Below, one piece after another: positions 1 to 48,979 of a stretch of DNA of 64,000 bases. Under the pieces are notes generated by a model, which worked only from the letters and a program-made list of their open reading frames with translations, ran no database searches and had not been told where the DNA came from. The DNA is taken from the NCBI GenBank assembly GCA_965223545.1, contig OZ245006.1:1216001-1280000 (forward strand). The letters run 5' to 3'. This DNA is from Planctomycetota bacterium (GTDB taxonomy: Bacteria; Planctomycetota; UBA1135; UBA2386). Position 1 is the stretch's first letter; every line of letters starts with the position of its first letter. A program made the translations under genes and the position numbers.

Positions 1-1991
1 GTCCACTTTGCGAGCGGATTGCCGTGCACATCGCGCACGGTGCCGGTGATCCGACCGCCGGTCATCGATGGGTACCAGGCCTGCGCCGCCCCTCCTTCGA
101 GGTCGAACTTCGCGCCGGCGACGGCTCGGCCATCGACGCGCAGGCGAGCCTCGATGCGCCCCGGCGGTAGGCCGCCGAGGCGGAAGCCGCCGTCGTCACC
201 GAGCCGCACGCTCGACCCCCACCACACGGGCGCGAGGGTGTCCCCGTCGAGCATTGGGTCGCGCGGCGACGCCCCCGACGCGATCGCTACGACGCGGGCG
301 TCGGTGACCCCGCCGCCAAGCGCGGCGCGGCCGTGGAGACTACTGCCGGCGTGGAGGCGGATCGCGATGGTCGCGGTCGCACCTGGCGCCGGCGTGTCGA
401 CGTGACCCGTCCACGGGGCGAAGCCGGGCGCGCGCGCCCAGAGCACGACGCGGCTCGATGCCGGCGCGCTGTCGCACGCGAAGCGGCCATCGGCGGCCGC
501 GCGCAGCACGCGCGGCACCCGCAGTGCCAAGCGCTCCACGCTCTCCGCGGCGACGCGAAACCCGGCGTCGATCTGCAGCACGGCGCCCGCGATGGCGCGG
601 CCGGCGACATCGGTGACGCGGCCGCGGATCGTGGTCGCCGGCCGACCGATGCGCAGGTCCAACCGTTGTTCGCGCAGGTCGGACACCAGGCGCGGTGGAC
701 CCGGCCGGCGGCCACCGGCGACCGCGCACAGGGCTCGCCCCGGCTCGACATCGCGCAGCGCGAAGCGCCCGTCCGCATCGGTGCGCGCGACCTCGAGGCC
801 GCGGTCGAAGCGACCGCGCTCGGAGAGCCAGATCGAAACCGGACCGTCGGCTCCGGCGACCCGGCCGGAGACCGTGTTGCCCACCGGCAGCTGCAGCCGG
901 AGTGCGCGCCACTGGCCCGCGACCAGAGCCACCTCGTGATCCCCCGCCCGGTCGACGCGCAGCGACCAGCGCCCCGGCAGCAGCTCGTCGAGCTCCAGAC
1001 GTCCGTCCGCAGTGGTTCGCTCCCAGCGGTGGTGCAGGTGTGGATTAGCGACCTCGAGCGGCAGCAGGCGCAGCCAAACTCCCGCCGCCCCGACGCCGTC
1101 CGCCCACCGCACTTCGACCGCCAAGCCGGCACGATCGCGTGGCAGTGCCCGCCGCTCCTCGCCCACCGCCCCGACCCCGCGCCGAGGCTGGGCCGGGGCG
1201 CGCTGCGCGGACGCAGAAGCCGTCGATGCGCGCGCGGCGAGCAGCGGCTCGGCGGCGTTCTCGCCATCGTCCCCTCCGAGTCCCGCTGCAATCGCGAGGA
1301 ACGCGATCGCGGAAGCCGCCAACCCGAGACCGACATCGTTCCGCCAACGACCGCCGAGCAACCGCGGTCGCGCGGACCGCGCGGTGTCGACCACGGCCGC
1401 GCGCACCTCGGCCAAGCTGCGCTCGGCGACCACCAAGCCGGCGAGGGACGCGGCGAGTCCCGCTGGCAGGGCCCGCCGCAGCTGCGCCAAGCCCCGCCGC
1501 AACCACGTCTTCACCGTCCCCGGCGGCCGGCCGAGCGCGTGCGCGATCTCGCGAATCGCGAGACCGTGCACCAAGCGCAGCAGCACGACCTGCCGGTGCT
1601 GTTCGCTCAGCGTCTGCACCGCGTCGCGAAACAGCGCGCTGAACTCGGTCATCTCGGCGGCGCTCGGCGGTGCCACCGGATTCCGCACCGGCAGCCGGGT
1701 GGCGTCGACGTCCCGCCGGGCGCGCCGGTGTTCGCGACGGGCCTCGTTGGCCAGGATCGCGAACAGCCACGGCCGCACCGGCCGCGACGGGTCGTAGCTC
1801 TGCGCCGCGCCGATGGCGGCGACGAAGGTGGCCTGCACCAGATCCTCGGCGGTGGCCGCGTCGCTACCGAAGTGGTGCGCGAGCAGCAACAGCTCGGGCG
1901 CGACGAGGTCGAACACCGTCGCCAAGGCGCTGCCATCGCCAGTTCGGCGATAGGCGGCGAAGGCGGCGTCGGCGCGATCTGTGAGCTGCAT
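1..1991 (-). CDS. ECF sigma factor fused to a transmembrane helix and carboxypeptidase-regulatory-like (Ig-like) repeats; 3' end runs off the window
   Basis: Absent from the ORF track because no stop lies in the window. Segments translated by hand from ATG 1991: MQLTDRADAAFAAYRRTGDGSALATVFDLVAPELL...AEDLVQATF...VRPWLFAILANEAR (sigma2); LSEQHRQVVLLRLVHGLAIREIAHALGRPPGTVKTWLRRG (sigma4); VGLGLAASAIAFLAIAAG (TM). ITGTVRDVHGNPLAKW at the window edge is in the same frame. Confidence 0.88.
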   Translation of the reverse strand, partial: MQLTDRADAAFAAYRRTGDGSALATVFDLVAPELLLLAHHFGSDAATAEDLVQATFVAAIGAAQSYDPSRPVRPWLFAILANEARREHRRARRDVDATRLPVRNPVAPPSAAEMTEFSALFRDAVQTLSEQHRQVVLLRLVHGLAIREIAHALGRPPGTVKTWLRRGLAQLRRALPAGLAASLAGLVVAERSLAEVRAAVVDTARSARPRLLGGRWRNDVGLGLAASAIAFLAIAAGLGGDDGENAAEPLLAARASTASASAQRAPAQPRRGVGAVGEERRALPRDRAGLAVEVRWADGVGAAGVWLRLLPLEVANPHLHHRWERTTADGRLELDELLPGRWSLRVDRAGDHEVALVAGQWRALRLQLPVGNTVSGRVAGADGPVSIWLSERGRFDRGLEVARTDADGRFALRDVEPGRALCAVAGGRRPGPPRLVSDLREQRLDLRIGRPATTIRGRVTDVAGRAIAGAVLQIDAGFRVAAESVERLALRVPRVLRAAADGRFACDSAPASSRVVLWARAPGFAPWTGHVDTPAPGATATIAIRLHAGSSLHGRAALGGGVTDARVVAIASGASPRDPMLDGDTLAPVWWGSSVRLGDDGGFRLGGLPPGRIEARLRVDGRAVAGAKFDLEGGAAQAWYPSMTGGRITGTVRDVHGNPLAKW

Positions 1992-4879: not shown

Positions 4880-6100
4880 CTACAGCAGCGAGCGCGTCTC
4901 CACGACCGTGGTCCAGACCTCGTCGCCGCGCGCGACCTCGACTTCAATGCTCTGTCCGACTCTACAGAACAGCGCTCTCGCCTCTGCCAGACTGTGTCGG
5001 CTCGCATCGACACCGGCAATGCGTCGCAGCACGTCGCCGGCGCGCAGGCCGGCATCGGCCGCAGGCGTCCCAGGGCTGACGAAGAACACTCGGCGCTCGC
5101 CGGCATCGTCGACCCCGGCGACGAGGAACAGCCCACTGGCGTCGACAACCTGCTCTCGATCGAACAGCTCGTTGGGCTTCAACAGCAGACGATCCCGCGC
5201 GTAGTCGAAGACGACGTCGAAGCGGTGTAGGACCTCGCCGCCGAACAGGTTCAGGCGCGCGCCGGTCAATCCGGTACCGAAGGTCACTGTCGGTCGCGGG
5301 ATGGAGAAGGGCCCGATCCGCAGACGGTGCAGGCGAGTGACGAACCGCCGGTGGGCGGTTTCCTCCGGCGAATCCGCCAGCCCGGTGCTGCCCATCACCG
5401 CAACGCGCGGCGCGTCGGCCCCGACCAGTGCCTCGATGGCATCCGCGTCGTGCAATCCGCAGCTGTTGCCGACCCCTCCACCACTGTCGACCAGCATCCG
5501 GACCGACCGGGTCTCGCTCTCCGAAGCGAGCGAGACCTCGGCGAAGGGTAGGTTGCCCCTCCCGGGATTGAACGACACAGCGACTGCGGCACCTCGATCG
5601 CTCCCGTCGAAGCGATCGGGATCGTGGAGCACCATCCGCTCGGCGACGTAGTCGATCTCGCACGTGTAGCGACTGAGGAATGCATGCCCGAGGATGCCGT
5701 GCACGGTCCGTCCGGTCATCCGCCGCGCCAAACCCTCGCACGACGCGACCAGGACCCGTTCGTATTCGGCGGTGACCCCTCCCACGTCGATGGCGACGTC
5801 GCTGGCGAAGCGCATGGTGAACTGACCGCCCTGCGAGGTGCGACCGCCTTTGCGCACCGGCCCCATCTCCAGCCCAAGGCGATCCGCGACGCGACTCTCG
5901 AGCACGACGCCAGACGCCCCTGAATCCAGCAACAGCGTCACTGGCTCTCCTTGGATCTTGGCTTCGACCAAGATCAAGTTCATGTGGCGCTCGACGACCA
6001 CATTGGCGATCTCCGAGCCACCTTGGCTGGCCAGTCGATCGACGAGAGGGACGGCGGCGAGAACTACGGCCAACGGCCGGGCAAAGGGGTGAGTGTTCAT
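4880..6100 (-). CDS. Secreted tandem retropepsin-like aspartyl protease with C-terminal PDZ domain
   Basis: Two D[ST]G motifs (LLLDSGAS, MLVDSGGG), GILGHAFL and LFGGEVL motifs, PDZ signature VSPGTPAADAGLRAGDVLRRI, N-terminal signal peptide. Confidence 0.88.
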   Translation of the reverse strand: MNTHPFARPLAVVLAAVPLVDRLASQGGSEIANVVVERHMNLILVEAKIQGEPVTLLLDSGASGVVLESRVADRLGLEMGPVRKGGRTSQGGQFTMRFASDVAIDVGGVTAEYERVLVASCEGLARRMTGRTVHGILGHAFLSRYTCEIDYVAERMVLHDPDRFDGSDRGAAVAVSFNPGRGNLPFAEVSLASESETRSVRMLVDSGGGVGNSCGLHDADAIEALVGADAPRVAVMGSTGLADSPEETAHRRFVTRLHRLRIGPFSIPRPTVTFGTGLTGARLNLFGGEVLHRFDVVFDYARDRLLLKPNELFDREQVVDASGLFLVAGVDDAGERRVFFVSPGTPAADAGLRAGDVLRRIAGVDASRHSLAEARALFCRVGQSIEVEVARGDEVWTTVVETRSLL

Positions 6101-6140
6101 GGTGATTTTCGGGCCGGCCAGAGGCCACGCCCAGCGGGAT

Positions 6141-6167
6141 GTTGCCGCGACATCACGATCGGACTCG
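6141..6167 (-). promoter_or_regulatory. Putative ECF promoter, copy A (upstream of the PDZ aspartyl protease)
   Basis: Minus strand cGAGTCCGatcgtgatgtcGCGGCAAC; matches the copies at 6212-6238 and 10505-10531 with identical spacing. Confidence 0.65.
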
Positions 6168-6211
6168 ATCCTCTGCCGATCCCGGTCGGGTCAGCCCGTA
6201 CCGGCTGCGGA

Positions 6212-6238
6212 TGAGACCCTTTCCGACCGCGCGGCAAC
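6212..6238 (+). promoter_or_regulatory. Putative ECF promoter, copy B (upstream of the thioredoxin/TPR/TolB protein)
   Basis: tGAGACCCtttccgaccgcGCGGCAAC; 18/27 identical and ungapped against the copy upstream of the sigma gene. Confidence 0.65.
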
Positions 6239-6265
6239 GAAATCGGCAGACCACTGCCAAGAGCC

Positions 6266-8221
6266 ATGATCGGAATCGCCAAGATCCCCCCGCTGTCGTG
6301 CGCAGCCATTGCTTTCCTCGCCGCCCCCCCGTCGATACCGACCGAGATCGACTGGTACCACGGCAGCTTCGACAGTGCCGTGACCCGGGCGCAAGACGAA
6401 GACAAGGACCTCCTGCTCTACTTCTGGTCGGAGCGCAGCGACGCATGCGCCGGCTTCTACCAGGGTCCGCTGCAGGATGCGCGCGTGGCCGCCGCGACGC
6501 GGCCGTTCTTGTGCGTGGGCGTGCAGCTCGAGCCCGAGTCCGGAAAGGCGCTCTTCAACCGATACGCGATCACCACGACGCCGGCTCTTCTGCTGGTCGA
6601 CCCCGCCGACCAGCGCGCGCAAGGTGGAGTCTTCGGCTCCGCCAACGTGCCGACCGTTGTCCGCGAGCTACGGCGCATGGCGGACGACGAGGGAACGCTG
6701 CGCGCCCTCGAACGCGCCACGGCAGCAGACCCCGGCGACCTCGACGTGCGCAGCCGCCTCGCCGACTGCGTCGCCGCCTTGGGTCAAGCCGAGAAGGCAC
6801 GTCATCTGCGGGAGAGCATCACGGCCGACGACCCTGATGGGTCGAGCGACGCGGCCGCATCGATGCTTCTCGAGCAACACATGCGGCGGACGTTCGGTTC
6901 ACTGGCGGAGCTGAGCGCGGATCCGATCCGCGACTTGGTCGAGCACGTCCAGGCGATCAAGCCCCCGGCGACGCGGCAGCGGGGCTGGGACCACGTCGCT
7001 CGCCTGCGCAATGCGATCGGCGACCGGGTCGGAGAGATGGCCGCGTGGCGGCAGGCTTTCCCCTTGGTGCGTGATGGCCGCCTGTTCAACTGGGGTTGGA
7101 ACCAGTGCCTGTGGTGGTGGTCCAACCGCGACGTCCTCACCAAGAAGGACAAGGCGTTCGCCCTCGAAGTCGCGCGCAAGACGGCCGAAGTCTCCGAGCG
7201 ACTCAGCGCCGAAGATCCGGAGTACTACGACCCCCGCCTGTTTCTCACGCGACGCCTCAACGTCCTCGCCATGACCCAGCACATGAATGGGCATCCAGGC
7301 GAGGCGATGCGCGTCATGGAGCGCTGCGTTCGACTCGCACCGGACAACGACGAATATTCTGCCCGGCTCGCGGCGTATCGAGCAGGCGCCGCCGACGAGT
7401 GCTTTCAACCGTACTCCGACTACGATCCCGCGTGGTCACCCGATGGCCGCAAGATCCTGTTCACCTCGACGCGCGACTACAACGCGGAGCTCTACGTCGC
7501 CGACGTGAAGACCGGGGCACAGCGGCGGATCACCCGGTCGTTGGCCGCGGACGACCAGGGAGTCTTCAGACCAACCGGCCGATTCCTGGCATTTCGCTCC
7601 GATCGCTTCCTGACGACTGGCATCTACCGCGCCAAGCTCGACGGCTCTGGCTGCAGCTTGTTGGTATCACTGCGCACCGCCGATGGACAAGTCGTGCCAG
7701 CCGGCATGCCGTCCTACTCGCGAGACGGTCGGCAGCTGGCGATGATCGCGATGTTCGACGGCAGATCTCGAGCAGCGCTCGCCAACGCGGCCGGAGGCTT
7801 GGCAACGCCGATTCTCGGTGCCACGCAAGCCGTCGCCACGGTCACGTGGGCCGACTCACGCTTGCTCTATTCCGCGTCACAGAACCAGCAACAAGATCTC
7901 TTCATCGCCGATGCCTCCGGGGCCGCAGCCCACAACCTTACCCCCGCAGACGATGAGTCCTGGGACGCGGAGGCCTCCGCCGACCGCCGCGGAAAGCGCG
8001 TCGTGTTCGCCCGCTGGCGCGACGGCGACTACGACCTCTGGAGCGTGCTGGTGGACGGATCGCAACTGACCCAGATCACCAGCGGCCCGGCCCGTGACCG
8101 TCGCCCCGCGCTGTCGCCCGACGGCAAGCACGTCGCGTTTGATCGGACCGACGCCTCGGGCAACAGCAGGATCTGGGTGATGCGCGTGGATGGCACCGAG
8201 TCCCGCCCCCTGCTCGATTGA
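6266..8221 (+). CDS. Thioredoxin-like (SxxC) domain, TPR-like helical region and TolB/PD40 beta-propeller
   Basis: IDWYHGSFDSAVTRAQDEDKDLLLYFWSERSDAC...YAITTTPALLLVD (thioredoxin fold); DPAWSPDGRKILFTSTRD, PSYSRDG and RPALSPDGKHVAF (PD40 repeats). Confidence 0.82.
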   Translation: MIGIAKIPPLSCAAIAFLAAPPSIPTEIDWYHGSFDSAVTRAQDEDKDLLLYFWSERSDACAGFYQGPLQDARVAAATRPFLCVGVQLEPESGKALFNRYAITTTPALLLVDPADQRAQGGVFGSANVPTVVRELRRMADDEGTLRALERATAADPGDLDVRSRLADCVAALGQAEKARHLRESITADDPDGSSDAAASMLLEQHMRRTFGSLAELSADPIRDLVEHVQAIKPPATRQRGWDHVARLRNAIGDRVGEMAAWRQAFPLVRDGRLFNWGWNQCLWWWSNRDVLTKKDKAFALEVARKTAEVSERLSAEDPEYYDPRLFLTRRLNVLAMTQHMNGHPGEAMRVMERCVRLAPDNDEYSARLAAYRAGAADECFQPYSDYDPAWSPDGRKILFTSTRDYNAELYVADVKTGAQRRITRSLAADDQGVFRPTGRFLAFRSDRFLTTGIYRAKLDGSGCSLLVSLRTADGQVVPAGMPSYSRDGRQLAMIAMFDGRSRAALANAAGGLATPILGATQAVATVTWADSRLLYSASQNQQQDLFIADASGAAAHNLTPADDESWDAEASADRRGKRVVFARWRDGDYDLWSVLVDGSQLTQITSGPARDRRPALSPDGKHVAFDRTDASGNSRIWVMRVDGTESRPLLD

Positions 8222-8262
8222 AGCCGGCGGTCGCCTACTCGACCGACTCCGCCGTGGAGACT

Positions 8263-10494
8263 TCACCGCGACTGCTCGAGGCCACCGGCGAGGCGAACAC
8301 AATGCAGCGCGCCGAGTCCCAGGGCGATCTCCCGCTTCGCCACCAACGCCCCTTCGCGATACACGACCACTCGGCGCGCCCGCGCACTGACTCTCACGGT
8401 TTCCGAACGGCCGGCGTGCAAGCGGCCTCGCGTCGAAACTTCCCACTGCAAGCCTCGGAAATGGTGCAACGGCAACGGGCACCCATCCTCGGCGAGGATC
8501 GCGAAGCACTCCCCTCCGCGGGGCGCCACCAACTCGATCCGCAGGCGGACCGCGCGCTGCACGACGACGGTCAACGCTCGATCGGCAGAGAGGTCCCGGC
8601 GCAGCGGCAGCACGCCAACGCCGCGGACCTCGAGCACCGGCTGCACACGCGGAACGTCGCGCAACCTGAACGACCCGTCCCGACCGGTCGTGATGCTCGT
8701 GCGCCAACGCGTCGACGCCGCATCGCCGAAGGAAGCAGAGATGTCCGTCCCAACGCGCACTTCAGCCGCAGCGACCGCCCGACCCAGGTCGTCGACCACT
8801 CGCCCGTGCATTTCGCCCAGAACCTCGGTCGGGTCGAGGACCACGGTGAGCACATCTCCGCTGGTCCGCGGCAGCGGCACATTCACCCTCGTCAACGACT
8901 TCGGTTCGATCACCGCGAGCTCACCGGTCGCTGGCGCGAGCTCGCAGATCTCGAACCACCCCCCTGCGGCTGTGATCGCGTCGGCGGACTGCCGAGCGCC
9001 ATCGCGGCGACTCGCAGCACCGACACCCCACACCTCGACTCCCGCCAACCCGCGTCCATCGGGGTCGCAGACCCGACCACGAACTGTTCGTGCCGCGGGG
9101 GGTTTTGGCCCGGGCTCGCCGGCCGCACTCCCCACCAGTGTCACCGGCAGCCGAGGACCGATGGCCTCGACCGCGAACGCCCGCTCGATGAAGCCGGCCT
9201 TCCGAACGCGCACTACCGCACCGGGCACAACCGGAAGCGTCAGCCCGAAACAGCCATCTGCGTCGGCGTCGACGGCTGTGCCCACGGTGCTGGCGGCGTC
9301 CAGTGCGACGGCCAGCCGAGCGCGGAAGTCCGCAGGCAACACGACACGGCATCGGGCGCCGGCAACCGGTTGCCCGCTCGTGTCGAGCACGCGCCCGACG
9401 ACGGCGCGCGGGCGCGCAACCACGACGTTGACTTCACAGGGCCCTTGCGCGGCCGTCTCCCCCGCCAGCACGGTGACCCAAGACTCGGACACAACATCGA
9501 TGCGACCGCCCGGCCAGTATCGGTGAAAGGAGAACCGCCCGTGGGCATCGCTGATGCTCACCAGTTCGCCGTTGGCCCGCGCGGGGGCGTGGGGTCGAAG
9601 CCGTACCACAGCAGCTGCGACCGGCAGGCCGGTGTCTGCCAGCACTCGACCGCGCAGCACGACACCCGGCTCGAGAGTGGCCGCGGAGTTGATGGCGGTG
9701 GGCACGGCGACGGCGGAGGCCTGCGCCCGCGGCTCGAGGGGCGCGGTCGCCGCGCGCGGAGTGGCGCCAGCCCGGTCTTTGCCGGCGGACAGCGCCGCGA
9801 TCGAAACCGCACTCGTCGGCAGCGGGGGCAACGGTCCCGTCCCGCAGCTCCGCCACGCACCGGCCGGCAGCGCGAGGACGAGACCGGCGGCCAGCGCCCA
9901 GCGCGCAAACGCCATCCTACGCCCCATGGGTCGACCGACACACAGCGCGACGAGGGCGGGAAACCAACCGCGACCGTCGTCCCTGGTCCGGCGTCGCAGC
10001 TGTTCGCGAATCGCCGCCTGCGCGCGCGCCAACCTGGTCTTCACCGTCGATACCGGCACACCGAGACGGGCGGCGATCTCCGCAGGCTTGCAGTCGTCGT
10101 AGAACCGCAGCAGAACGACATCTCGGTAGTGGGGAGCGAGCCCATCCACCACGTCGGCCAGCAGCGCCTGGGTCTCCTTGTGCTCGATCGTGTCGAGCGC
10201 GGAAGGCAGACCCTCGGGTTGCGCGCAGGCGCGCTCCCGCCGCTGACGGCGGCAGCGCCGGCGCTGCTCCAGCGCCGCCAGGTTCTTCACCACCCGAGCG
10301 AAGAAGCGGCGCGGCGCACGCGGCGGTCCACCGCCTGCCAAGGCCGCGAGCATCGATTCCTGCACGAGATCGTCGGCTTCGTGGCCATCGCTCACCAACT
10401 TGCGAGCCAGCGAGCGGGCCCAGGTGGCGTCACGCACCCACTCGCTCGAGGGCGGTGTCGCATCGCGGTCACGATCCGATGGACAGTCCATCAC
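8263..10494 (-). CDS. ECF sigma factor fused to a TM segment and carboxypeptidase-regulatory-like repeats
   Basis: ADDLVQESMLAAL (sigma2); LAPHYRDVVLLRFYDDCKPAEIAARLGVPVSTVKTRLARA (sigma4); hydrophobic WALAAGLVLALPAGAW; repeats GRVLADTGLPVAAA, GRVLDTSGQPVAGA, GRVCDPDGRGLAGV and GRVVDDLGRAVAAA. Confidence 0.9.
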   Translation of the reverse strand: MMDCPSDRDRDATPPSSEWVRDATWARSLARKLVSDGHEADDLVQESMLAALAGGGPPRAPRRFFARVVKNLAALEQRRRCRRQRRERACAQPEGLPSALDTIEHKETQALLADVVDGLAPHYRDVVLLRFYDDCKPAEIAARLGVPVSTVKTRLARAQAAIREQLRRRTRDDGRGWFPALVALCVGRPMGRRMAFARWALAAGLVLALPAGAWRSCGTGPLPPLPTSAVSIAALSAGKDRAGATPRAATAPLEPRAQASAVAVPTAINSAATLEPGVVLRGRVLADTGLPVAAAVVRLRPHAPARANGELVSISDAHGRFSFHRYWPGGRIDVVSESWVTVLAGETAAQGPCEVNVVVARPRAVVGRVLDTSGQPVAGARCRVVLPADFRARLAVALDAASTVGTAVDADADGCFGLTLPVVPGAVVRVRKAGFIERAFAVEAIGPRLPVTLVGSAAGEPGPKPPAARTVRGRVCDPDGRGLAGVEVWGVGAASRRDGARQSADAITAAGGWFEICELAPATGELAVIEPKSLTRVNVPLPRTSGDVLTVVLDPTEVLGEMHGRVVDDLGRAVAAAEVRVGTDISASFGDAASTRWRTSITTGRDGSFRLRDVPRVQPVLEVRGVGVLPLRRDLSADRALTVVVQRAVRLRIELVAPRGGECFAILAEDGCPLPLHHFRGLQWEVSTRGRLHAGRSETVRVSARARRVVVYREGALVAKREIALGLGALHCVRLAGGLEQSR

Positions 10495-10504
10495 ATCCCA
10501 CGAA

Positions 10505-10531
10505 GTTGCCGCAACCAGTGAAACGGACTCA
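10505..10531 (-). promoter_or_regulatory. Putative autoregulatory ECF promoter, copy C
   Basis: Minus strand tGAGTCCGtttcactggttGCGGCAAC, ending about 10 nt before the sigma start codon, so the transcript would be nearly leaderless. Confidence 0.65.
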
Positions 10532-10641
10532 CCGAACTCGAGCTTGTGACTCCGGCTGCGTCCCCAGGGCCGAGGAATCCCCTGCGTTGCGGGCCCGGTC
10601 CACGGCGCACTCTCCGAGACGCTATCCTTCGCTGCGCTTTC

Positions 10642-11781
10642 ATGAGAACCCTCCGCATGCTAATCCATCGCACTCGCTTGCCGACCATTGCCGCGGTCTG
10701 CGCCGCCGCGACACCACTGGTGGCGCAGCGCGACTCCACCGCGATCGAGTGGGAATCGTCGCTCGCATCGGCCCTGCGCGCGGCCGCCAAAGACTCCCGC
10801 AAGATTGCGATCTACTTCTGGATCGGCGACAGCGACTACTGCCGGCGCATGTGGGAAGAGACCCTTGGTCGTGACCGGGCGGTGGCCGAGCTGTCACAGT
10901 TCGTCTGCCTCAGCACGCGCGCCGATCAGGAGCACGCCGCGGCTTTGATGCAGCGTTTCGCCGTGACCAAGCTGCCCACGATGCTCTTTGCTGCTTCGGA
11001 TGGGCAAGCGGAGGATGCGATTCGCGGCTTCATCGACCTCGATGCCTTCGTCGCCGAATGTCGTCGCATTCGAACCGGCGACAAGACCGTCAGCGACTGG
11101 CGCCGCCGGTGCCACGCTGCCCCCGATGACCTCGATGCGCGGCTGCAGCTCGCGCTACAGCTGCGGCACGTCGGCGAGCGCGACGAAAGCGCACACCTCA
11201 TCGCATCGATCAAGCGCGCCGACCCCAAGGGCGCTTCCGTGGCGGGCGCCCAACTGCGACTCTACGACGTGTTCGACGAAGTGCGCGCCAGCGCGGCGGA
11301 CGCCAGCGACCCCAGCACCTATGACTTGACCCCGCTGTACGCGCACCTACCGGTGGTGCGACCTCGCGCGGTCCTGCACGAAGCCTGGCGGTGGATTGCC
11401 GATGTCGAGCACCAGCGTGGCGATCGCCCACACGAGCGAACGGCACTGGCGGAGACCTGGCGGCATGCGACCGAGGGCAAGCCACGCGCCGACGCGAGCG
11501 CCACGCTTCTGCAGCGCTACACGGACATGGGCGACGAGCTCAACGAGGCCGAACGCGCACTCGCGTTGGAGGTCGCCCATTGGTTGCGCGATGCAGCCCG
11601 CGCCCACCCCGAGGCTCCCGCGAACTACGTGCACCACGCGCACGCGATGGCGCTGTTCCTCAACCACCGGCTCGACCAAGCCATCGACCAGCTGCAAAAC
11701 GCGATCGAGCTCGCGCCCGATGAGGCCGACCACCGGCAACTCCTCGAACGCGTGCGCCAAGCGCAACGCGCTCGTCGTTGA
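10642..11781 (+). CDS. Secreted thioredoxin-like (SxxC) + TPR protein; paralog of the N-terminal part of 6266-8221
   Basis: IEWESSLASALRAAAKDSRKIAIYFWIGDSDYCRRMW...FAVTKLPTMLF and a C-terminal TPR (QAIDQLQNAIELAPD). Start (ATG 10642 or 10657) is uncertain. Confidence 0.82.
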   Translation: MRTLRMLIHRTRLPTIAAVCAAATPLVAQRDSTAIEWESSLASALRAAAKDSRKIAIYFWIGDSDYCRRMWEETLGRDRAVAELSQFVCLSTRADQEHAAALMQRFAVTKLPTMLFAASDGQAEDAIRGFIDLDAFVAECRRIRTGDKTVSDWRRRCHAAPDDLDARLQLALQLRHVGERDESAHLIASIKRADPKGASVAGAQLRLYDVFDEVRASAADASDPSTYDLTPLYAHLPVVRPRAVLHEAWRWIADVEHQRGDRPHERTALAETWRHATEGKPRADASATLLQRYTDMGDELNEAERALALEVAHWLRDAARAHPEAPANYVHHAHAMALFLNHRLDQAIDQLQNAIELAPDEADHRQLLERVRQAQRARR

Positions 11782-16138: not shown

Positions 16139-18982
16139 CTATTCGACGACGAACACCTGTACGCTGCGCGGTGGCATGAAGCCCGGCGCCGCGGCGTCGT
16201 GGTGCTGCAGCTTGATGTCGGTGGTGCCCAGGCCCCAGCCGAAGGTGCTGTCCCCGTTGCCCTGACCGACGAGGTACTCCACCACGCCCGCGCCCGCGGG
16301 GCGCAGCCCCTTGACGACGAAGTCTTGGTCGATGCCGTCATAGTGGGCCGGGTCGAACGACCCGGTCCACGCCGAGGGGAAGTCGGACCAGTTGACGAAG
16401 ACGATGCCGACCCGATCTTCACCCGGAGTGCGCCAAACGCCGTGCATCACGGTCGCCACCGGGTACTGCTGGATGGTCAGGGAGTCCTCGTTGAAGTGCA
16501 GCACGCCCGGCGTCGCCGGCGAGGTCAGCGTCGCCACCGCGGTCGACGGGTTGGGCACCGAAGTCACCACCAGTGGCGGGTAGCCCAGCGGGCCACGCGG
16601 CGGCAGCCGCAGCGGCCGCTCGGCAATGCCACCGCACAGGTACTGGCCGGCCTCGTCGGTGCACGACGTGGCGGCATGCACCCGCTGCAGGAACGCGATC
16701 ACGTCATTCTGCTGCGGCACGCTCGGATCCCGCGCCTCGACCACGCCGTTGCGATTCACGAACAAGGTGAAGTCCTTGTAGTCGTAGAAGAACGGGTACA
16801 CCTGCGGCTTCATGCCCTGCACCAACCGCAGTGCCGTGACCATGCGTGTGTAGTCGGCCCACTGCTGCCAGGTGAGGCCCAAGCCCGGCGGCTGGCCGCC
16901 ACCGAGATCGGCGCGCACGCCGGTCGTGTGCAGCATCACACCGATCGCGTCGGCGCGCGAGTACTCGTGATACACCGGGTTCCACAGCGGCGGGTTGGGG
17001 TTGGCGGTCTCCACCGGGGTGGGGAACGGATTGCCCGCGATCAGATCCAGGACGGTCATCTGCTGCGTCTGCAGCGGCACCGGCTTGATGCCGTGCTGGC
17101 CGAAGTCGTAGTGGCCGGCGTAGAACTCCTGGGCGGCCTCGGTGAGCACGAACGGGATCTCGGGGTGCTGCGCCCCGGTCTTGTCCCGGCCCACTCGCGC
17201 ACGGATTACGTCGAACGCGCGGTTGCCGCCCTCGACGAAGGCGGTGCCGCCGTGGTGGCGGAAGTTGAACGGCAAGGGCCCGTTGGGCGACGGGTAGCGC
17301 AAGAAGCTGCCCTGGCCGCCGAGCGTATCGAGGAACACGCCGCCGAGCTGCGGGGTGGTGTTCATGATGTCGTCGTAGAGCTCGGTACCCATCCACCCCG
17401 GCACTGCGACGGTGTGGCCGAAGTCGACGATCATGCCGCCGGTCGGCAGCGGTGGCGGCTGGGTGCCGTCGCGCAGATAGACGAACCAGTCGGGATCGAA
17501 GCTGGGCCAATCGGCGTCGTTGACGTACAGCGGCAAGGTGTACATCGACATGTTGATGCCGGCGGCGTGGGCGCGCGCGATCTCGTTGCGCGCCTCGGTC
17601 GTCGGCTCCTGGAACGCACCCGCTGCCGCGGTGAACGGCCGTGGATTGTAGCCGGGCCCGATCGGGTCCTCGACGCCATCGCCCTTCAGCCATTTCTGCC
17701 ACTCCATGAACACCGGCGTCGCCGAGCCGTCCGGCTCGCGAAAGACCTGTTGGAAGTCCAGCGCCGTGTCCGTGAAGGTCTGGAACATGGCCGGCAGGTC
17801 GGCGTTGACCTTGTTGAAGACTGAGGTCGCCACCATGACCGAGCTGCGCGGGTAGTCGGGATTGAGCGCGTAGGCCGGATCGGCGACCCCGACCAATCCC
17901 ATCTCGCTGCGCACGAACTCGCGATAGTGGCTGGTGACGTCGTACCAGAACGTGTCGTCAGCCGCTTCGAGCGCGCACAGCACGGCGGGATATCCGCTCT
18001 GGAAGTAGTTGAGCCAGGGTGAGGGCCCGTACTCGGGGAAGTACACCGGCGCCCACCGGTAGTACTCCAGCCCCAGCGGATCGGGCACGCAGTCGTGTTG
18101 GAAGCGCTTGTAGTAGCCCTCGTGGTCCTCGGTCGAGAAGTAGAGGATCTTGCGGAATGCGGTGAACAGCTCGTTGCCGAGCGGAATCGATGTCGGGTCG
18201 CCACCGTACAACGCGCTGAACTGCATCTGCTGCCCGCGCGCCGGGTGCTCCACATCGGCGGACAAGCCGAACAGCCGCCAGAGCGACATCGGCAAGTTGG
18301 TCGCCGGCAGCACGAAGTTGGTCGACAGCGGGATCAGAATTCGTGCCTGCGCGGCGCTGCCAGGCTGGCGTGCGTAGACGATCGGTGCGTGCACCTCATC
18401 CACGGTGTGCTGCTCGGTGCCGCCCGGAATCTGCAGCCGGATCACGCGGCTGTTCCACTCGGCGCGGTTGGGCGACGTCGCGGGGATCTTGACCTCCAGC
18501 TCGACCAACAACACCGACGCCGGGCTCTGGCACGGAATCGCGCAACCCATCCAGCTGAAGATCGCGTGCGTCGGCGCCGATCGCGAGTCGACCCAGGTCT
18601 CGAAGTTGAGCGCGCTGTCGGGCAGCACTTCGGTCGGCGTCTGACTGGTGAGTGGCCGGGTGACGACTTTCCACAGACCGCGCGGCTGGCCCAGCGGCGG
18701 TGTTGCGGCGTAGGCGAAGCGCGTCACCGTGCCGTCCGCCCGCGTGCCGCGGTGGCCGATCTCGGTGAGCACGGCGCCGACTGAGGCATCCCGGGTGAAC
18801 GTCAACGCGATGCGCCGGTCGCCGCTATCGACCGAGCCGACCTGCAGCTGGTCGCCCGGGTTCCAGCGCAGGCGCGACATGCGCAGCTTGGAGAAGGGGG
18901 CACCTTGACCAAATGCCGCAGTGGGGAGCAGACTGACACTGACTGTCACCAGTGCCGCCAGGAGAGCTGTGGTGCGAAGCAT
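16139..18982 (-). CDS. Large secreted protein, possibly glycoside-hydrolase-like (DUF6259-like)
   Basis: Signal peptide ending AFG|Q. Motifs MQFSALY...LYFSTED...KRF, WYDVTSHYREFV, GGVFLDTLGG and LTEA. The family assignment is tentative. Confidence 0.6.
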   Translation of the reverse strand: MLRTTALLAALVTVSVSLLPTAAFGQGAPFSKLRMSRLRWNPGDQLQVGSVDSGDRRIALTFTRDASVGAVLTEIGHRGTRADGTVTRFAYAATPPLGQPRGLWKVVTRPLTSQTPTEVLPDSALNFETWVDSRSAPTHAIFSWMGCAIPCQSPASVLLVELEVKIPATSPNRAEWNSRVIRLQIPGGTEQHTVDEVHAPIVYARQPGSAAQARILIPLSTNFVLPATNLPMSLWRLFGLSADVEHPARGQQMQFSALYGGDPTSIPLGNELFTAFRKILYFSTEDHEGYYKRFQHDCVPDPLGLEYYRWAPVYFPEYGPSPWLNYFQSGYPAVLCALEAADDTFWYDVTSHYREFVRSEMGLVGVADPAYALNPDYPRSSVMVATSVFNKVNADLPAMFQTFTDTALDFQQVFREPDGSATPVFMEWQKWLKGDGVEDPIGPGYNPRPFTAAAGAFQEPTTEARNEIARAHAAGINMSMYTLPLYVNDADWPSFDPDWFVYLRDGTQPPPLPTGGMIVDFGHTVAVPGWMGTELYDDIMNTTPQLGGVFLDTLGGQGSFLRYPSPNGPLPFNFRHHGGTAFVEGGNRAFDVIRARVGRDKTGAQHPEIPFVLTEAAQEFYAGHYDFGQHGIKPVPLQTQQMTVLDLIAGNPFPTPVETANPNPPLWNPVYHEYSRADAIGVMLHTTGVRADLGGGQPPGLGLTWQQWADYTRMVTALRLVQGMKPQVYPFFYDYKDFTLFVNRNGVVEARDPSVPQQNDVIAFLQRVHAATSCTDEAGQYLCGGIAERPLRLPPRGPLGYPPLVVTSVPNPSTAVATLTSPATPGVLHFNEDSLTIQQYPVATVMHGVWRTPGEDRVGIVFVNWSDFPSAWTGSFDPAHYDGIDQDFVVKGLRPAGAGVVEYLVGQGNGDSTFGWGLGTTDIKLQHHDAAAPGFMPPRSVQVFVVE

Positions 18983-22218: not shown

Positions 22219-22434
22219 GCGGGCGGGGGTCGGCGGCGACGGCGGGCTCGGCCCCGTGCCGTGGAGAGAAGACCGCGCACTGTCGCCGCCCGCCCGCGGC
22301 ACCGCAAGCGCCACGCGGCCGCACGGCCGGCCGCGCGACGAGGAAATCGTGGGTACATTTTTGCGCACGGACGATCCATTGGAAGATGGCGGGTGCCGGA
22401 CACCGACTCCCGCGCGACCACCCGCTCCGACCGC

Positions 22435-25400
22435 ATGCACTGCAATCACCGCCGCCGTACCATCCCGCTGCTGGTCCTCGCCGCCGGCGCGCACCTCGCG
22501 GCCCAGTCACCGGCGCCGATCGAGGCGCCGCTCGCCGACCGCCTGCCGGCGCTCGCCGAGCAATCGAGCTGGGCCCAGGACACCCGCTACGAGGGGGAGC
22601 AGCCGGACAAACGCCAGCGCGGCACCTACCCGATCGGCAACGGCTACGTCTTCGCCTACCAAGGGCTCGGCGCCCGGGCCAACACGCTGCAGGCGATCAC
22701 CGGTCCCCGCTACCAGACCGACGCGGTGTTCGAGCCACGCGGCCACTTCGGGGCGTGCAGCCTGGAGCTGTCGCGCGACGGCGCGCCGCTGGCGCTGCCG
22801 CAGCAGCGCGTGCGCCGCGTGCTCGGCGCCGCTGCGGTGGTCAGTGAGGATCGCGGCGACGACGTGGCGCTGCGGGTCCTGACCTTCGCCGCCCCCGAGC
22901 GTCGCCATCTGGTGCGGGTCATCGACGTCGTCAACACCGGCCCGGACGAGCTCGCGGGCCTGCGACTGCGTGTCGCGGTCGAGGGCACCGCGGCCGCGCT
23001 CGGCGAGGACGGCCTCGCGCTGGTCTACGCGTCGGAACGGCGGCCGGCGAGCGCGGTGCTGCGACTCGCAGGCGCGGCGTTTGCCGACGGCGGTCTGACG
23101 ACCGCGCTGCCCACCCTGGCAGCGGGGGAACGCTGGCGCGGCGTGCTCTCGATCCACACCCGGGCCGGCGCCACTCCCGACGCCGACAGCGCGCCCGTGC
23201 TCGACGTCGAAGCCGCCGCGCGCGAAGCCGAGGGCGTGCTCGCCTGGTGGCGCTTCAAGCTGAGGGACACCCTGCAAGTCGATACCGACCACCACAAGCT
23301 GCGCGATCTGGTCACCGACTGGAAGGTCTTGATGCTGACCCAACGCTGCGCCACGTCGGGCGCGGTGTCACCGATGATCAACTACCGCGGGGCGTGGGTG
23401 CGCGACAGCGTCGGCCCGATGCTGTGGTTCCTGCGCACCAATCTGTGGGCCGAGGCGCGCGGCATCCTGTCCTACCTCTACCGCGCCACGCGCCTGCACA
23501 ATCGGGTCCCCAACCACGTGCCGCTCGACCTGGACTTCGCCCCGCTCGCCGAGCGCGAGACCGATTGGACCACCGTCGCCGTGCCGGAGAGCGAGGTGCC
23601 GTCGTGGATCATCCTGATGCACTACTGGTACTGGCGCGCGACCCGCGACGCCGCGCTGATCCGCGACCACTGGTCGTTGCTCGAGGTGTGCCTCAAGCGG
23701 CAGCAGCGCGGCGAGGGCGGCGTGATGCCGTTCCACGGCGACGAGACCTACCTGCACGGGGCTCTCTACAGCCTGTACCCCGACCGGGTCGGCGCCGGCA
23801 GCGGCTTCATCGCGGAGGATCGCTGGCGCGGCCGCAAGACCCACTCGCTGGCGAGCGGGGTGCAGTTCCTGCTCGCGGTGCTGGCGATGGGCGAGCTGCG
23901 CGACGCGGTGGACGCCCTGCTGCGTCCCGACGCATGGGCCCGCGGCCGGCCCGACGACGCGCCGGGTCAGCCCTACCTGGAGCAGCGCGTCCCGGTGCAG
24001 CGCGCGCTCGAGGACGCGTTTTGGCTCGAGGAGGAGGGCTTCTTCGCGCCGGCCTTGTCGCCGGTCAACCGCGAGCCGCACCGGCTGCCGTTCGCCAACG
24101 TCAACTTGATGCCACTGTGGCTCGGCTGGACGTTTCCCAGCGGCGAACGCAGCCGCGACAACCTGCGCAACACGCTGGCCGGGTTGTGGCGGGACGGTGT
24201 TCGGATCGGCACCACGCCGACGGTCGGCTACGCCACCGGACACGCGCAGGGAATGCTGCTGGCGGGCCTCAGCGAGCGCGACGCGGCATCGCGCCTCGAC
24301 TGCCTGGACGCCTTGCTCGAGATGGCGGAGCCGGCGGGGGAATGGGGCGAGATCCACGACCCCGACGGCCGGCCGGTGGCCGCTTACCACGCCGAGTGGC
24401 CCAACCGCTGCCGGCCGTGGGAGGGTGGCATCAACATGGACGCGATCCTGTTCTCGCTCTGCGGTTCGCGCTACGCGTCACTGCCCAACTGGGACCTCGA
24501 CGACATCCGCCTCGAGCCACGGCTGCCGCACGGCGGGACGTTCGTCACCTTCAAGCACATGCGCAAGGACGCGCGCGACCTGCACTTGTTCGTCTACGAA
24601 CACACCGCGCCGCTCAGCGAGGAAGAACGCGCCGAGAACCTGCGGCTCCCCGCCGACCAGCGGCGCGACCCGCGCGCCGCGCACCGGCGGCTGGCGTTTC
24701 GCCTCGAACAGCTGTCGGCAGACCCGCCCGCGGGGTTCCGGCATCTGGCGGCCAACAGCGTCGGCACGCTGTTCACCGAGTTCGTCCGCCGCGGCGTGCC
24801 GATCGAGAAGAGCGAGTTCTGGGGTGCGGACCACCTGCAGTTCATGCCGGCGCCCGACACTCCGCCACGGCCGCCAAAGGTCGCGCCACCGTCGGTCGCC
24901 GCCGGCACCGAGCGCATCGTGCTCACCAGCCGGCAGCGCGGCGCCGACATCGGCGGCAAGGGAGCCGTGCCGATCGACACCGGGTTGCCCTGCGATCCGG
25001 GACAGATCGGGTCCGCGTTGTTGCGCGACGGCGCGCCGGCGGCGCGCGAGCTGCTCTTGGACTGGGGCTGGAACGACCCCGGGCGCACCACGTTCAAGCC
25101 GGAAGCGTTCTGGCAAGATCCCGCGTGGCTGCGGGCACTCGACGCCTTCCGCGCCGGCGGCGGAGTCGTGCACACCCCCGGCTTCGTCTCGAGCTACGTC
25201 GTCGAGGGGCAAAGCCCGACCGTCACCCCGGCGCCCGGTGGGCGGCTCGAGCTCGCCGCCGACGTTCCGCGCCCGGTGCGCGTGCGGGCGCGCTGGCACG
25301 CGGACCGCGCCGGCGAGGCGCTGCTCTGGATCGGATCGGGATGCGGCCTGCAAGCCCGCTTCAACGGCGACGCCCTCTACGAGCACAGCGGCGGCCGCCA

Positions 25401-25551
25401 CCCGCTGCCCGACCTGGATCGGGTCCTGGTCCAGCTCCGCGAGGGCGACAACGAGCTCGAGATCACGCTGCGCGAGGGCGGCAACGCGGTGCTCTACGCG
25501 CGCTGTACGGACCTCGAGGGCCGGCCGCTCACCCCCACGGCCCAGCCCTGA
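22435..25551 (+). CDS. Large secreted protein with a probable six-hairpin (alpha/alpha)6 glycosidase-like core
   Basis: Signal peptide ending HLAA|Q; YPIGNG, YRGAWVRDS, EWGEIH...RPWEGG; C-terminal beta-sandwich LVQLREGDNELEITL. Confidence 0.65.
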   Translation: MHCNHRRRTIPLLVLAAGAHLAAQSPAPIEAPLADRLPALAEQSSWAQDTRYEGEQPDKRQRGTYPIGNGYVFAYQGLGARANTLQAITGPRYQTDAVFEPRGHFGACSLELSRDGAPLALPQQRVRRVLGAAAVVSEDRGDDVALRVLTFAAPERRHLVRVIDVVNTGPDELAGLRLRVAVEGTAAALGEDGLALVYASERRPASAVLRLAGAAFADGGLTTALPTLAAGERWRGVLSIHTRAGATPDADSAPVLDVEAAAREAEGVLAWWRFKLRDTLQVDTDHHKLRDLVTDWKVLMLTQRCATSGAVSPMINYRGAWVRDSVGPMLWFLRTNLWAEARGILSYLYRATRLHNRVPNHVPLDLDFAPLAERETDWTTVAVPESEVPSWIILMHYWYWRATRDAALIRDHWSLLEVCLKRQQRGEGGVMPFHGDETYLHGALYSLYPDRVGAGSGFIAEDRWRGRKTHSLASGVQFLLAVLAMGELRDAVDALLRPDAWARGRPDDAPGQPYLEQRVPVQRALEDAFWLEEEGFFAPALSPVNREPHRLPFANVNLMPLWLGWTFPSGERSRDNLRNTLAGLWRDGVRIGTTPTVGYATGHAQGMLLAGLSERDAASRLDCLDALLEMAEPAGEWGEIHDPDGRPVAAYHAEWPNRCRPWEGGINMDAILFSLCGSRYASLPNWDLDDIRLEPRLPHGGTFVTFKHMRKDARDLHLFVYEHTAPLSEEERAENLRLPADQRRDPRAAHRRLAFRLEQLSADPPAGFRHLAANSVGTLFTEFVRRGVPIEKSEFWGADHLQFMPAPDTPPRPPKVAPPSVAAGTERIVLTSRQRGADIGGKGAVPIDTGLPCDPGQIGSALLRDGAPAARELLLDWGWNDPGRTTFKPEAFWQDPAWLRALDAFRAGGGVVHTPGFVSSYVVEGQSPTVTPAPGGRLELAADVPRPVRVRARWHADRAGEALLWIGSGCGLQARFNGDALYEHSGGRHPLPDLDRVLVQLREGDNELEITLREGGNAVLYARCTDLEGRPLTPTAQP

Positions 25552-25557
25552 AGCCGG

Positions 25558-27057: not shown

Positions 27058-27241
27058 GGTCGAATCGAGTCAGTCGACGCGTTCAAAGGGTGGCGCCTGC
27101 GCGCCGCCGGGACAACGGCGCGCCGGCGTTCCCCCCACAAAACCCGCAATTCCGGGGCGGGGTTCCCACCAACAGCCATTTCGGCCGCGGCCGGGGCCGA
27201 CAAAAGGCTCTGTCTCTCCGAGCCTCCGGCCCGCAGGCCGA

Positions 27242-28077
27242 TCAGGGGAGCACCTCGTTGAGGGCCCCGCTGCGGTAACCCCGCAGATCGAGGGCGGCGT
27301 GGACGTAGCCGACCTCGCGCAGGGCCTCGCAGATCGCCAATCGCTCCCGCAGCGCCGTCTCCAGCTCTTCCGGCAACAGCTCCACGCGCGCCACTTCGCC
27401 GTGGTGGCGCACGCGGCACTGGGAGAAGCCCATCGCCCGCAAGGCCGACTCGGCGGCCTCGATCTTGGCCAGCATCGCGGCGTCGATGGAGGTGCCGTAC
27501 GGAACCCGCGACGCCAGGCACGCCATCGCCGGCTTGGACGCGGTCGGCAACCCGTGCGCGCGGCTGTAGCGCCGCACCTCTTCCTTGCCGATTCCGGCAG
27601 CTGCCAGCGGCGCCAGCACGCCGCGCTCGGCGGCCGCGCGCGCCCCGGGCCGGTGGTCGCCCAGGTCATCGGCGATGGCGCCGAAGAGCACCGGCCACGC
27701 CGCCTCGACGCGCCCGCCGAGGTGGGCGGCAATCCGCTCGAACAGCTCGCTCTTGCAGTGGTAGCAGCGATCGGGCCCGTTGCGCACGTAGTCGGCAGAC
27801 GCCAGCTCGCCGGTGGCCAACACCACATGCCGGGCGCCGATGCCGACCGCCAACCGCTGCGCATCCGCCAGCTCGGCGCGGGGTAGCGACGGCGAATCGG
27901 CGGTCACTGCCAGCACATCGTCGCCGAGCACTCGAACGCACGCGTGCAACAGCGCCGTCGAATCGACCCCGCCGGAGAAGGCGACCACCGCTCCCGGCAG
28001 CGCCGCCAGCTGCGCGTCGACCGGCGCCCAGGCCGCGCTGTGCGCCGCGCCAGAGGGCGCCGGATCTCCGCGCGCGA

Positions 28078-28081
<4 letters not shown>
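27242..28081 (-). CDS. larE: LarE-family ATP-dependent sulfur transferase (PP-loop)
   Basis: VVAFSGGVDS, NGPDRCYHCK, DDLGDHRPG, KPAMACLASRVPYG, CRVRHHG, GYRSGALN. ATGA overlap with the upstream dipeptidase. Confidence 0.9.
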
Positions 28082-48951: not shown

Positions 48952-48979
48952 GTCAGACAAACTCCAGTCGGGAGAAACC

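Follow-up and report, generated by a model that had tools for sequence, protein, structure and literature searches.

A predicted ECF promoter shared by membrane-tethered sigma factors, exported thioredoxin-TPR proteins and a PDZ aspartyl protease in Planctomycetota

Which promoters does a sigma factor read when it is tethered to the membrane with no anti-sigma gene beside it, and what sets it free? A 64,000-nucleotide stretch of DNA from a Planctomycetota bacterium (assembly GCA_965223545.1, contig OZ245006.1, positions 1,216,001 to 1,280,000; hereafter the window) raises this question by a cluster of four genes at its positions 4880-11781. The cluster codes for an extracytoplasmic function (ECF) sigma factor with a long C-terminal extension, an aspartyl protease with a PDZ domain and two proteins with an SxxC thioredoxin (Trx) fold and tetratricopeptide repeats (TPR), one of them fused to a TolB-like propeller. 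The original prediction described these genes as a self-contained ECF regulon joined by a promoter motif in three copies, in which the protease may help to release the sigma from the membrane. The motif is very probably an ECF promoter read by the window sigma and by its paralog at C1:1995530 of the same genome (G000). The regulon is likely scattered and small, comprising eight genes, two of which code for membrane-anchored sigmas. The PDZ aspartyl protease is likely a gene switched on by the system and not its trigger.

The predicted promoter motif and the residues that covary with it

The motif is composed of GAGTCC or GAGACC, a 12-nt spacer and GCGGCAAC. Three exact matches of 26 bases each were found in the window at one spacing (Table 1), and none in 100 dinucleotide shuffles of it; the spans first given for them were one base too long. 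Each copy is aimed at a start codon, as had been claimed, and the copies of the protease and the Trx-TPR-TolB gene stand back to back. GAGTCC would represent the -35 and (G)CAAC the -10 element. Read as GAGTCC, 16 nt and CAAC, the site found 5' of the sigma and its linked homologs has the spacer of about 16 nt that marks autoregulatory bipartite promoters. The -10 half of the sigma promoter lies inside a perfect 11-base inverted repeat (10505-10515), and the plus strand thus also reads GCAAC there, with no matching -35. The motif had been said to link the thioredoxin-TPR proteins as well; this holds for the Trx-TPR-TolB gene and fails for the second Trx-TPR gene, upstream of which neither the window pattern scan nor the genome matrix scan found a copy.

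Table 1. Features of the cluster and sites of the predicted promoter elsewhere in the genome (window positions).
Feature	Position	Strand	Description
PDZ aspartyl protease	4880..6100	-	Two-lobe, single chain; DSG at 59-61 and 205-207; C-terminal PDZ; signal-peptide-like N-terminus; predicted sigma target
Predicted ECF promoter of protease	6141..6166	-	GAGTCC, 12 nt, GCGGCAAC; ends 40 nt 5' of ATG 6100
Predicted ECF promoter of Trx-TPR-TolB	6213..6238	+	GAGACC, 12 nt, GCGGCAAC; ends 27 nt 5' of ATG 6266
Trx-TPR-TolB	6266..8221	+	SxxC thioredoxin fold, TPR, TolB-like beta-propeller; signal-peptide-like N-terminus; predicted target
ECF sigma with C-terminal extension	8263..10491	-	Sigma2-sigma4, transmembrane segment, Pro/Ala linker, CarboxypepD_reg beta-sandwich repeats; reading frame opens at GTG 10494
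Predicted periplasmic all-beta extension	8290..9666	-	From AlphaFold2 model and profile matches
Predicted single transmembrane segment	9853..9915	-	Residues 194-214 of 743-aa reading frame; weakly hydrophobic here, clear in homologs
Sigma2 and sigma4 domains	10003..10425	-	R66, N70, L74 and S148 (from ATG 10491) at promoter-covarying positions
Predicted autoregulatory sigma promoter	10505..10530	-	GAGTCC, 12 nt, GCGGCAAC; ends 13 nt 5' of ATG 10491
Second SxxC Trx-TPR	10657..11781	+	CnoX/YbbN-like architecture; signal-peptide-like N-terminus; conserved divergent partner of sigma
Outside-window site			5' of second tethered sigma, C1:1995530
Outside-window site			5' of SxxC Trx-TPR gene divergent from the C1:1995530 sigma
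Outside-window site			5' of fourth Trx-TPR paralog
Outside-window site			5' of beta-lactamase-family hydrolase
Outside-window site			5' of alpha/beta hydrolase

In the whole genome (8.1 Mb, 69.7% G+C), the strict pattern GAGWCC-N12-GCGGCAAC occurs 6 times where 0.86 would be expected; each of 12 other spacers gave 0-2 occurrences. The original prediction had proposed a scan of the intergenic DNA, and the motif was found enriched there: a relaxed pattern gave 8 copies at spacer 12 and 0 at the eight other spacers (8-11 and 13-16), with intergenic regions as defined by our own gene caller. A matrix built from the 3 window sites alone placed 3 outside sites at the top ranks, all intergenic and co-oriented, in a genome that is ~12% intergenic. 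Five of the 8 intergenic copies lie outside the window, one of them 5' of the second tethered sigma, which is predicted to read the same promoter. This rules out a self-contained regulon. Signal-like N-termini were observed in 6/6 non-sigma targets by hydropathy and inspection.

Relatives were sampled first as a set of 40 and then across 91 genomes of the family, 339 of the order and metagenomes. From these, 175 distinct tethered-sigma cores were collected; a Trx-TPR neighbour is present in 25 of them (loci in Planctomycetota), which is not a frequency, as many cores were fetched via a Trx match. A family-wide matrix found related dyads 5' of 89 of the 175 sigmas, most of them at a distance of 30-50 nt from the sigma domain; on the reverse strand the count was 29 of 175. 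At 15 loci with scored sites at both genes, the two variable -10 bases agree between sigma and Trx in 24 of 30 cases (shuffled mean 14.0, p 5e-5), while the spacer, taken as control at the same loci, showed no such agreement (p 0.38).

In the 71 sigmas whose site was assigned with confidence, residue 148 of sigma4 is the one that covaries most strongly with the three variable -35 bases: serine goes with GAGTCC in 15 of 17, lysine with GAGGTC in 6 of 8 and alanine with GAATCC in 23 of 36. For four of the five -10 bases in the same set, the strongest covariation is with residue 74 or 66 of sigma2. Residue 74, four after the conserved Asn, is presumably in the place of RpoE Asn84. This RpoE residue has been shown to set -12/-13 specificity, and residue-base covariation of such kind is reported for ECFs generally, according to the account in PMC7776599. 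In the 28 paralogs of the genome that were tabulated, a basic residue 66, L74 and a VxTVKTRL helix occur together solely in the window sigma and in C1:1995530, each of which is preceded by the motif. Covariation with the DNA-reading residues, along with the conservation at orthologs described below, supports the predicted autoregulatory ECF promoter common to the sigma, the protease and the Trx-TPR-TolB gene, and we regard this promoter step as well supported by the sequence.

In the tethered-ECF family at large (L080-L288), -35 variants GAATCC, GAGTCC, GAGGTC and GACACC and -10 endings CATG, CATC, CGAC, CGTC, GATG and TGTC were seen. The ATG often follows 8-16 nt past the -10, which suggests near-leaderless transcripts. 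An intergenic repeat of ~210 bp (C1:5783081-5783290 of G000 and many other sites; >60 BLAST matches in the genome) resembles a miniature inverted-repeat transposable element or a repetitive extragenic palindrome; in 18 of its copies there is a dyad that departs from the promoter consensus by one base, having G where 87 of 89 family promoters have A. The second sigma/Trx-TPR pair of the genome (C1:1995530-1999445; L002, L003) has the motif in both directions. A groEL-groES-groEL set lies ~4 kb from this pair and groEL also follows the pair at L081, which may be chance. Perfect motifs were also found 5' of other exported proteins, namely an S9-like hydrolase, a DUF2911 protein and a TPR protein at L184, L185 and L042 (G082, G083 and G009). 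At L332 (G203, C562) a perfect motif stands 191 nt 5' of a protein with a signal-like N-terminus which is catalase-peroxidase-like by inspection, a single case hinting at an oxidative component.

Conservation of the sigma and thioredoxin pair

The conserved core is an ECF of the form sigma2-sigma4-transmembrane-CarboxypepD_reg together with a signal-peptide-bearing SxxC thioredoxin-TPR protein, and the nearest loci with a named phylum come from Planctomycetota metagenome-assembled genomes. The whole four-gene cluster recurs in one other genus of the same family (G009). There, the Trx-TPR gene is divergent from the sigma, the Trx-TPR-TolB gene is convergent with it, and the protease follows, co-oriented with Trx-TPR-TolB; the motif stands 5' of the sigma and the protease. 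G009 possesses both the window type and the C1:1995530 type of sigma. In the tree, 22 linked sigmas and one unlinked sigma formed a clade (SH-aLRT 87), and three window-type sigmas formed a separate long-branched group (95). A single clade of all Trx-linked sigmas was neither rejected nor shown (p-AU 0.65).

In other genomes, 14 of the 23 linked sigmas are preceded by a site with at most 2 mismatches to the window consensus; among unlinked sigmas the count is 8 of 150. At the same threshold, a site was found 5' of the Trx gene in 9 of 21 divergent and 5 of 8 downstream cases of the main clade and in 3 of 4 Trx-TolB fusions (0 mismatches in G203, 1 in G213 and 2 in G244), compared with 1 of 12 Trx orthologs present in single copy and with neither of the 2 window-type divergent Trx genes. 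For divergent genes the reverse-complement control is uninformative, both promoters sharing one short intergenic region. The pair recurs in relatives, and the motif is conserved 5' of orthologs. A metagenome scan with close Trx orthologs gave 107 pattern matches, none confirmed, and a degenerate promoter pattern in five genomes of family f10 gave 57 matches against 23 in the control, too loose to define regulons.

Planctomycetes are reported to have very many ECFs with long extensions, many of which are suggested in PMC7671368 to be fortuitous captures of unknown use. For the present module, a selected signalling role is argued because one clade keeps the extension, the partner genes and the promoter across at least two families.

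The sigma, its thioredoxin partners and the protease

In the window sigma, Pfam matches were Sigma70_r2 at 24-79, Sigma70_r4 at 112-164 and CarboxypepD_reg repeats, and TIGR02937 scored 63.9 bits against a cut-off of 42.9. The protein aligns to SigL, SigW and SigE with the conserved sigma2 and sigma4 residues retained, and it has the sigma2 and sigma4 domains only, joined by a short linker, as in ECF (group 4) sigmas. A transmembrane helix and Ig-like repeats had been assigned to it. The repeats are present as beta-sandwich CarboxypepD_reg repeats. The AlphaFold2 model of the extension shows a well-defined all-beta unit (pLDDT 88.6, pTM 0.87), and its profile matches NOMO2 (E 3e-9) and the N-terminal extensions of SusC; the window copy has one repeat fewer than 11 aligned homologs (gap in alignment A4). 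The helix part is less clear: the call rests on homology because the hydrophobic segment of the window copy itself is weak. Hydropathy analysis showed one clear hydrophobic segment in most linked sigmas, with a value of at least 1.6 in 19 of 23 (three of the 23 rows being mis-parsed). Domain scans of the window and the neighbour genes found no anti-sigma gene adjoining the sigma, in agreement with the prediction.

An iterated profile search of the genome gave 197 sigma70-family open reading frames (ORFs), of which 62 have more than 200 residues after sigma4 and 52 of these 62 a transmembrane-like segment. The tethered-ECF architecture represents a large family, with Atlas clusters of up to 2,579 members that are commonest in Planctomycetota. 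A second long ECF of tethered type (978 aa) is situated at window 1-1991 (-), 3 kb from the cluster and running past the window start, without an upstream motif.

The Trx-TPR proteins resemble CnoX/YbbN in having a thioredoxin fold with FW-x3-SxxC followed by TPR repeats. Profile search with the Trx-TPR protein matched E. coli YbbN/CnoX at E 2e-10, the best match being a Thermus thioredoxin (6e-14); the model of the Trx-TPR protein (pLDDT 90) gave YbbN as the top Foldseek match (E 4e-7), and one homolog is annotated at source as 'thioredoxin-like negative regulator of GroEL'. The SxxC residues are highly conserved (S in 54/54, C in 53/54), and a different Cys, five columns before the position of YbbN Cys63, a surface residue that takes part in mixed disulfides, is kept in 46/54. 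In CnoX, SxxC, which replaces CxxC in the E. coli type, marks the loss of oxidoreductase activity, the TPR part is the holdase and the partners are cytoplasmic GroEL/DnaK, as described in PMC8129009. The present proteins differ from cytoplasmic CnoX in the signal-peptide-like N-terminus, the paralogs and the TolB-like fusion. Hydropathy shows a hydrophobic, signal-like N-terminus, the first 28 residues of which are of low confidence in the model, and the Trx-TPR proteins, unlike CnoX, appear to be exported. The Trx-TPR-TolB protein has Pfam matches to Thioredoxin_7, TPR and PD40, with TIGR02800 under its cut-off. If a CnoX-like family is indeed exported, chaperedoxin biology would reach into the envelope as well.

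The protease shows Pfam matches to Asp_protease_2, gag-asp_proteas and PDZ. It possesses both D[TS]G motifs of clan AA, each with its hydrophobic-hydrophobic-Gly loop (ILG, LFG), and it falls under the cut-off of TIGR02281 and so outside that subfamily. Its PDZ domain is closest to that of DegP/DegQ (E 4e-21). Two further two-lobe aspartyl proteases of the genome (C1:6859003-6861078 and C1:5759893-5761266) have no PDZ domain, one carrying C-terminal repeats and the other an N-terminal TPR-like part; neither is a target of the motif.

Proposed release from the membrane and known systems

We consider it probable, with clear reservations, that a periplasmic cue leads to stepwise proteolysis by general proteases and that the freed sigma transcribes the sigma genes and a set of exported proteins. 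A single helix would anchor the sigma to the inner membrane, the beta-sandwich extension lying on the periplasmic side. Upon the cue, the extension would be trimmed and the chain then cleaved within the membrane, as in the tethered sigma IutY. General proteases are the most likely agents; the genome codes for an RseP-type M50 protease and gave ten S41 hits. The genes transcribed by the freed sigma2-sigma4 part would be those of both sigmas, the PDZ aspartyl protease, two exported hydrolases and 3 of the 4 SxxC Trx-TPR proteins. The Trx-TPR proteins may serve as holdase-like chaperones of the periplasm or may partner the extension. The protease would be an output: it would degrade misfolded proteins and contribute no more than feedback. 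The target set likely serves envelope protein quality control, and the envelope or folding-stress role proposed originally fits it.

Several points weigh against this reading. Both the relaxed pattern and the matrix of eight sites took shape once the sites were known. The permutation and mutual information tests of covariation count kin as independent, and tree-aware tests left 1-4 independent pairs, short of significance, with none contrary. The residue table covers 28 of the genome's 62 long ECFs and no short ones. The transmembrane segment of the window sigma has a weak Kyte-Doolittle value of 1.52 over 19 residues. The two hydrolase targets show no obvious protein-folding fit. The holdase role is inferred from resemblance: the Trx-TPR protein has a whole-chain TM-score of just 0.24 and ~14% identity to YbbN, and YbbN Cys63 aligns to a non-Cys residue.

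In IutY of Pseudomonas putida (ECF243), a hybrid of sigma and anti-sigma, a sigma domain, one transmembrane segment and a periplasmic domain likewise form a single chain; the corresponding segment of the window sigma is weak. Homologs of the families of both its release proteases, RseP and the PDZ-containing Prc, are present in this genome. Its targets are those of iron uptake, whereas here they are thioredoxin-TPR proteins and hydrolases; IutY also differs in that no Pfam match to a FecR-type domain or a TonB-dependent receptor was found in the present sigma or its neighbours. Release of IutY by the periplasmic protease Prc and by RseP is described in PMC5411451 and PMC8999054.

A more elaborate version of the proposed release, which we hold to be rather unlikely as a whole, is that the Trx-TPR proteins bind the extension and are titrated off by misfolded or oxidised periplasmic proteins, exposing it to proteolysis, here by the sigma-induced PDZ aspartyl protease, in a planctomycete-specific envelope folding response that has no anti-sigma. 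If true, this would be the first periplasmic chaperedoxin family and the first regulatory role for the CarboxypepD_reg fold, set in a family that supplies each genome with dozens of tethered sigmas and in which promoters obey a residue code that can be read.

The claim that the co-regulated protease releases the sigma was also considered in its own right, with the protease as a dedicated site-1 protease which clips the extension, starts release and gives positive feedback. Co-regulation is supported because the promoter precedes a PDZ aspartyl protease in three genomes, G000, G009 and G082, being unlinked to the pair in the last. Export to the same compartment is predicted for the protease, both its catalytic motifs are intact and its PDZ domain is DegP-like; the cluster proteases of G000 and G009 are 26% identical, which suggests that the slot was filled twice, and all three PDZ-bearing aspartyl proteases found in G009 adjoin a tethered ECF. 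A like role was proposed for the protease of ECF214s18, discussed below. The protease is, however, beside the sigma/Trx pair in just 2 of the 19 loci with enough flank (1 of the 17 from other genomes, all with a downstream flank of 3.5 kb or more, and 1 of the 2 in G000, whose pair at C1:1995530 has no adjoining PDZ aspartyl protease), and because of this it is likely an output and not the general release protease. G000 yielded a single PDZ aspartyl protease against its 62 long ECFs, and G083 (88% complete) has the pair and no match to this protease. At 20 further protease loci, drawn from 55 rows, a long ECF lies within ~5 kb clearly in 2 and weakly in 1, near a rough background of 10%, and the GAGTCC/CAAC promoter was found at 0 of the 20. 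Of the original claim, co-regulation stands; release by this protease, which is absent from 17 of the 19 loci, is weak. Its role as dedicated release enzyme is doubtful, and this account of the system unlikely. A general link between PDZ aspartyl proteases and tethered ECFs was not found outside G000 and G009.

It is distinctly unlikely that the paralog C1:1995530 is the real driver, with the window locus and its fast-evolving sigma downstream of it or partly redundant. Both sigmas share the motif, the basic residue 66, L74 and the VxTVKTRL helix, both types coexist in G009, and the window type is a long-branched group of three whose window copy is one repeat short and has the weakest transmembrane segment. 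Nevertheless, the window sigma is an intact protein in which the conserved residues of sigma2 and sigma4 are retained and which has S148, the residue most tied to GAGTCC. Its type persists in three genomes, and the promoter reads GGCAAC in all three.

Activation with no proteolysis, in which the membrane-bound sigma recruits RNA polymerase and the extension is a conformational switch, perhaps on binding the divergent Trx-TPR protein, is highly improbable. It would agree with an extension modelled as a well-defined unit, with the Trx-TPR gene and not the protease as the constant neighbour, and with a divergent Trx gene which lacks the promoter in three window-type loci, as a standing regulator might. 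On the other side, IutY, the only characterised tethered ECF, is released by proteolysis (PMC5411451, PMC8999054), and the Ala/Gly-rich transmembrane segment with a nearby Pro would resemble substrates of intramembrane proteases. That the motif is the site of another regulator or a chance dyad of common GC-rich words is hardly credible: GCGGCAAC does occur 1379 times in the genome, giving ~0.9 chance dyads per spacing, and the 210-bp repeat carries a version of the dyad with one mismatch, but spacer 12 is exclusive in intergenic DNA, the position before the sigma domain is fixed family-wide, the covariation is domain-matched and the family variants include the canonical ECF -10 CGTC.

ECF57, as presented in PMC7826278, comprises tethered planctomycetal ECFs and shares with the present sigmas the planctomycete relatives, the fusion to a transmembrane-bearing extension, the lack of an anti-sigma gene and the proposed release from the membrane; CarboxypepD_reg and TPR proteins are noted in its gene context. 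It is described with about two transmembrane segments; hydropathy shows one clear segment in most linked sigmas here. It differs in having a WD40 or homeodomain-like extension in part of its members, and promoters reported there as not conserved, whereas here CarboxypepD_reg repeats and a conserved promoter are found. Membership of ECF57 was ruled out by the missing sigma2/sigma4 Cys pair, which defines ECF57 and is completely conserved in it (both present in 5 of 175 cores, best Cys column 14 of 175).

For ECF214s18, an exported PDZ-fused aspartyl protease near the ECF is proposed in PMC7826278 as a site-1 protease which senses unfolded proteins. Both this system and RpoE/RseA/DegS/RseP have a separate anti-sigma; here none adjoins the sigma, and the protease is not a constant neighbour. 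The actinobacterial ECF48, ECF52 and ECF53 (e.g. SCO4117) are likewise ECFs with a transmembrane extension for which PMC8999054 expects proteolytic activation, but their zinc-binding anti-sigma-like and carbohydrate-binding domains were not detected here by Pfam.

The original prediction knew of no description of the combination. No account of the module, its promoter or an exported CnoX-like family came up in literature searches, and the planctomycetal ECF groups of Jogler 2012 and Wiegand 2020 may already cover the clade; the idea of release has precedents in the ECF214s18 site-1 protease and the ECF57 membrane release. The ingredients, a tethered ECF, autoregulation and a PDZ protease, each have precedent, and the surprise is limited. 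With the promoter, the targets and the residue code in hand, a heterologous reporter could be used to test a tethered planctomycetal ECF directly.

Elsewhere in the window, several long ORFs (279-1052 aa) at 16139-18880, 22393-28081, 34833-35864, 41681-42628 and 46658-47746 have no Pfam match at E 1e-5. A short ECF followed by a Ser/Thr kinase with WD40 repeats is situated at 42745-46625 (+), an arrangement described for planctomycetal ECF62 in PMC7826278. SelA and an AIRS-family gene, likely SelD, at 47896-50368 (-) point to the use of selenocysteine.

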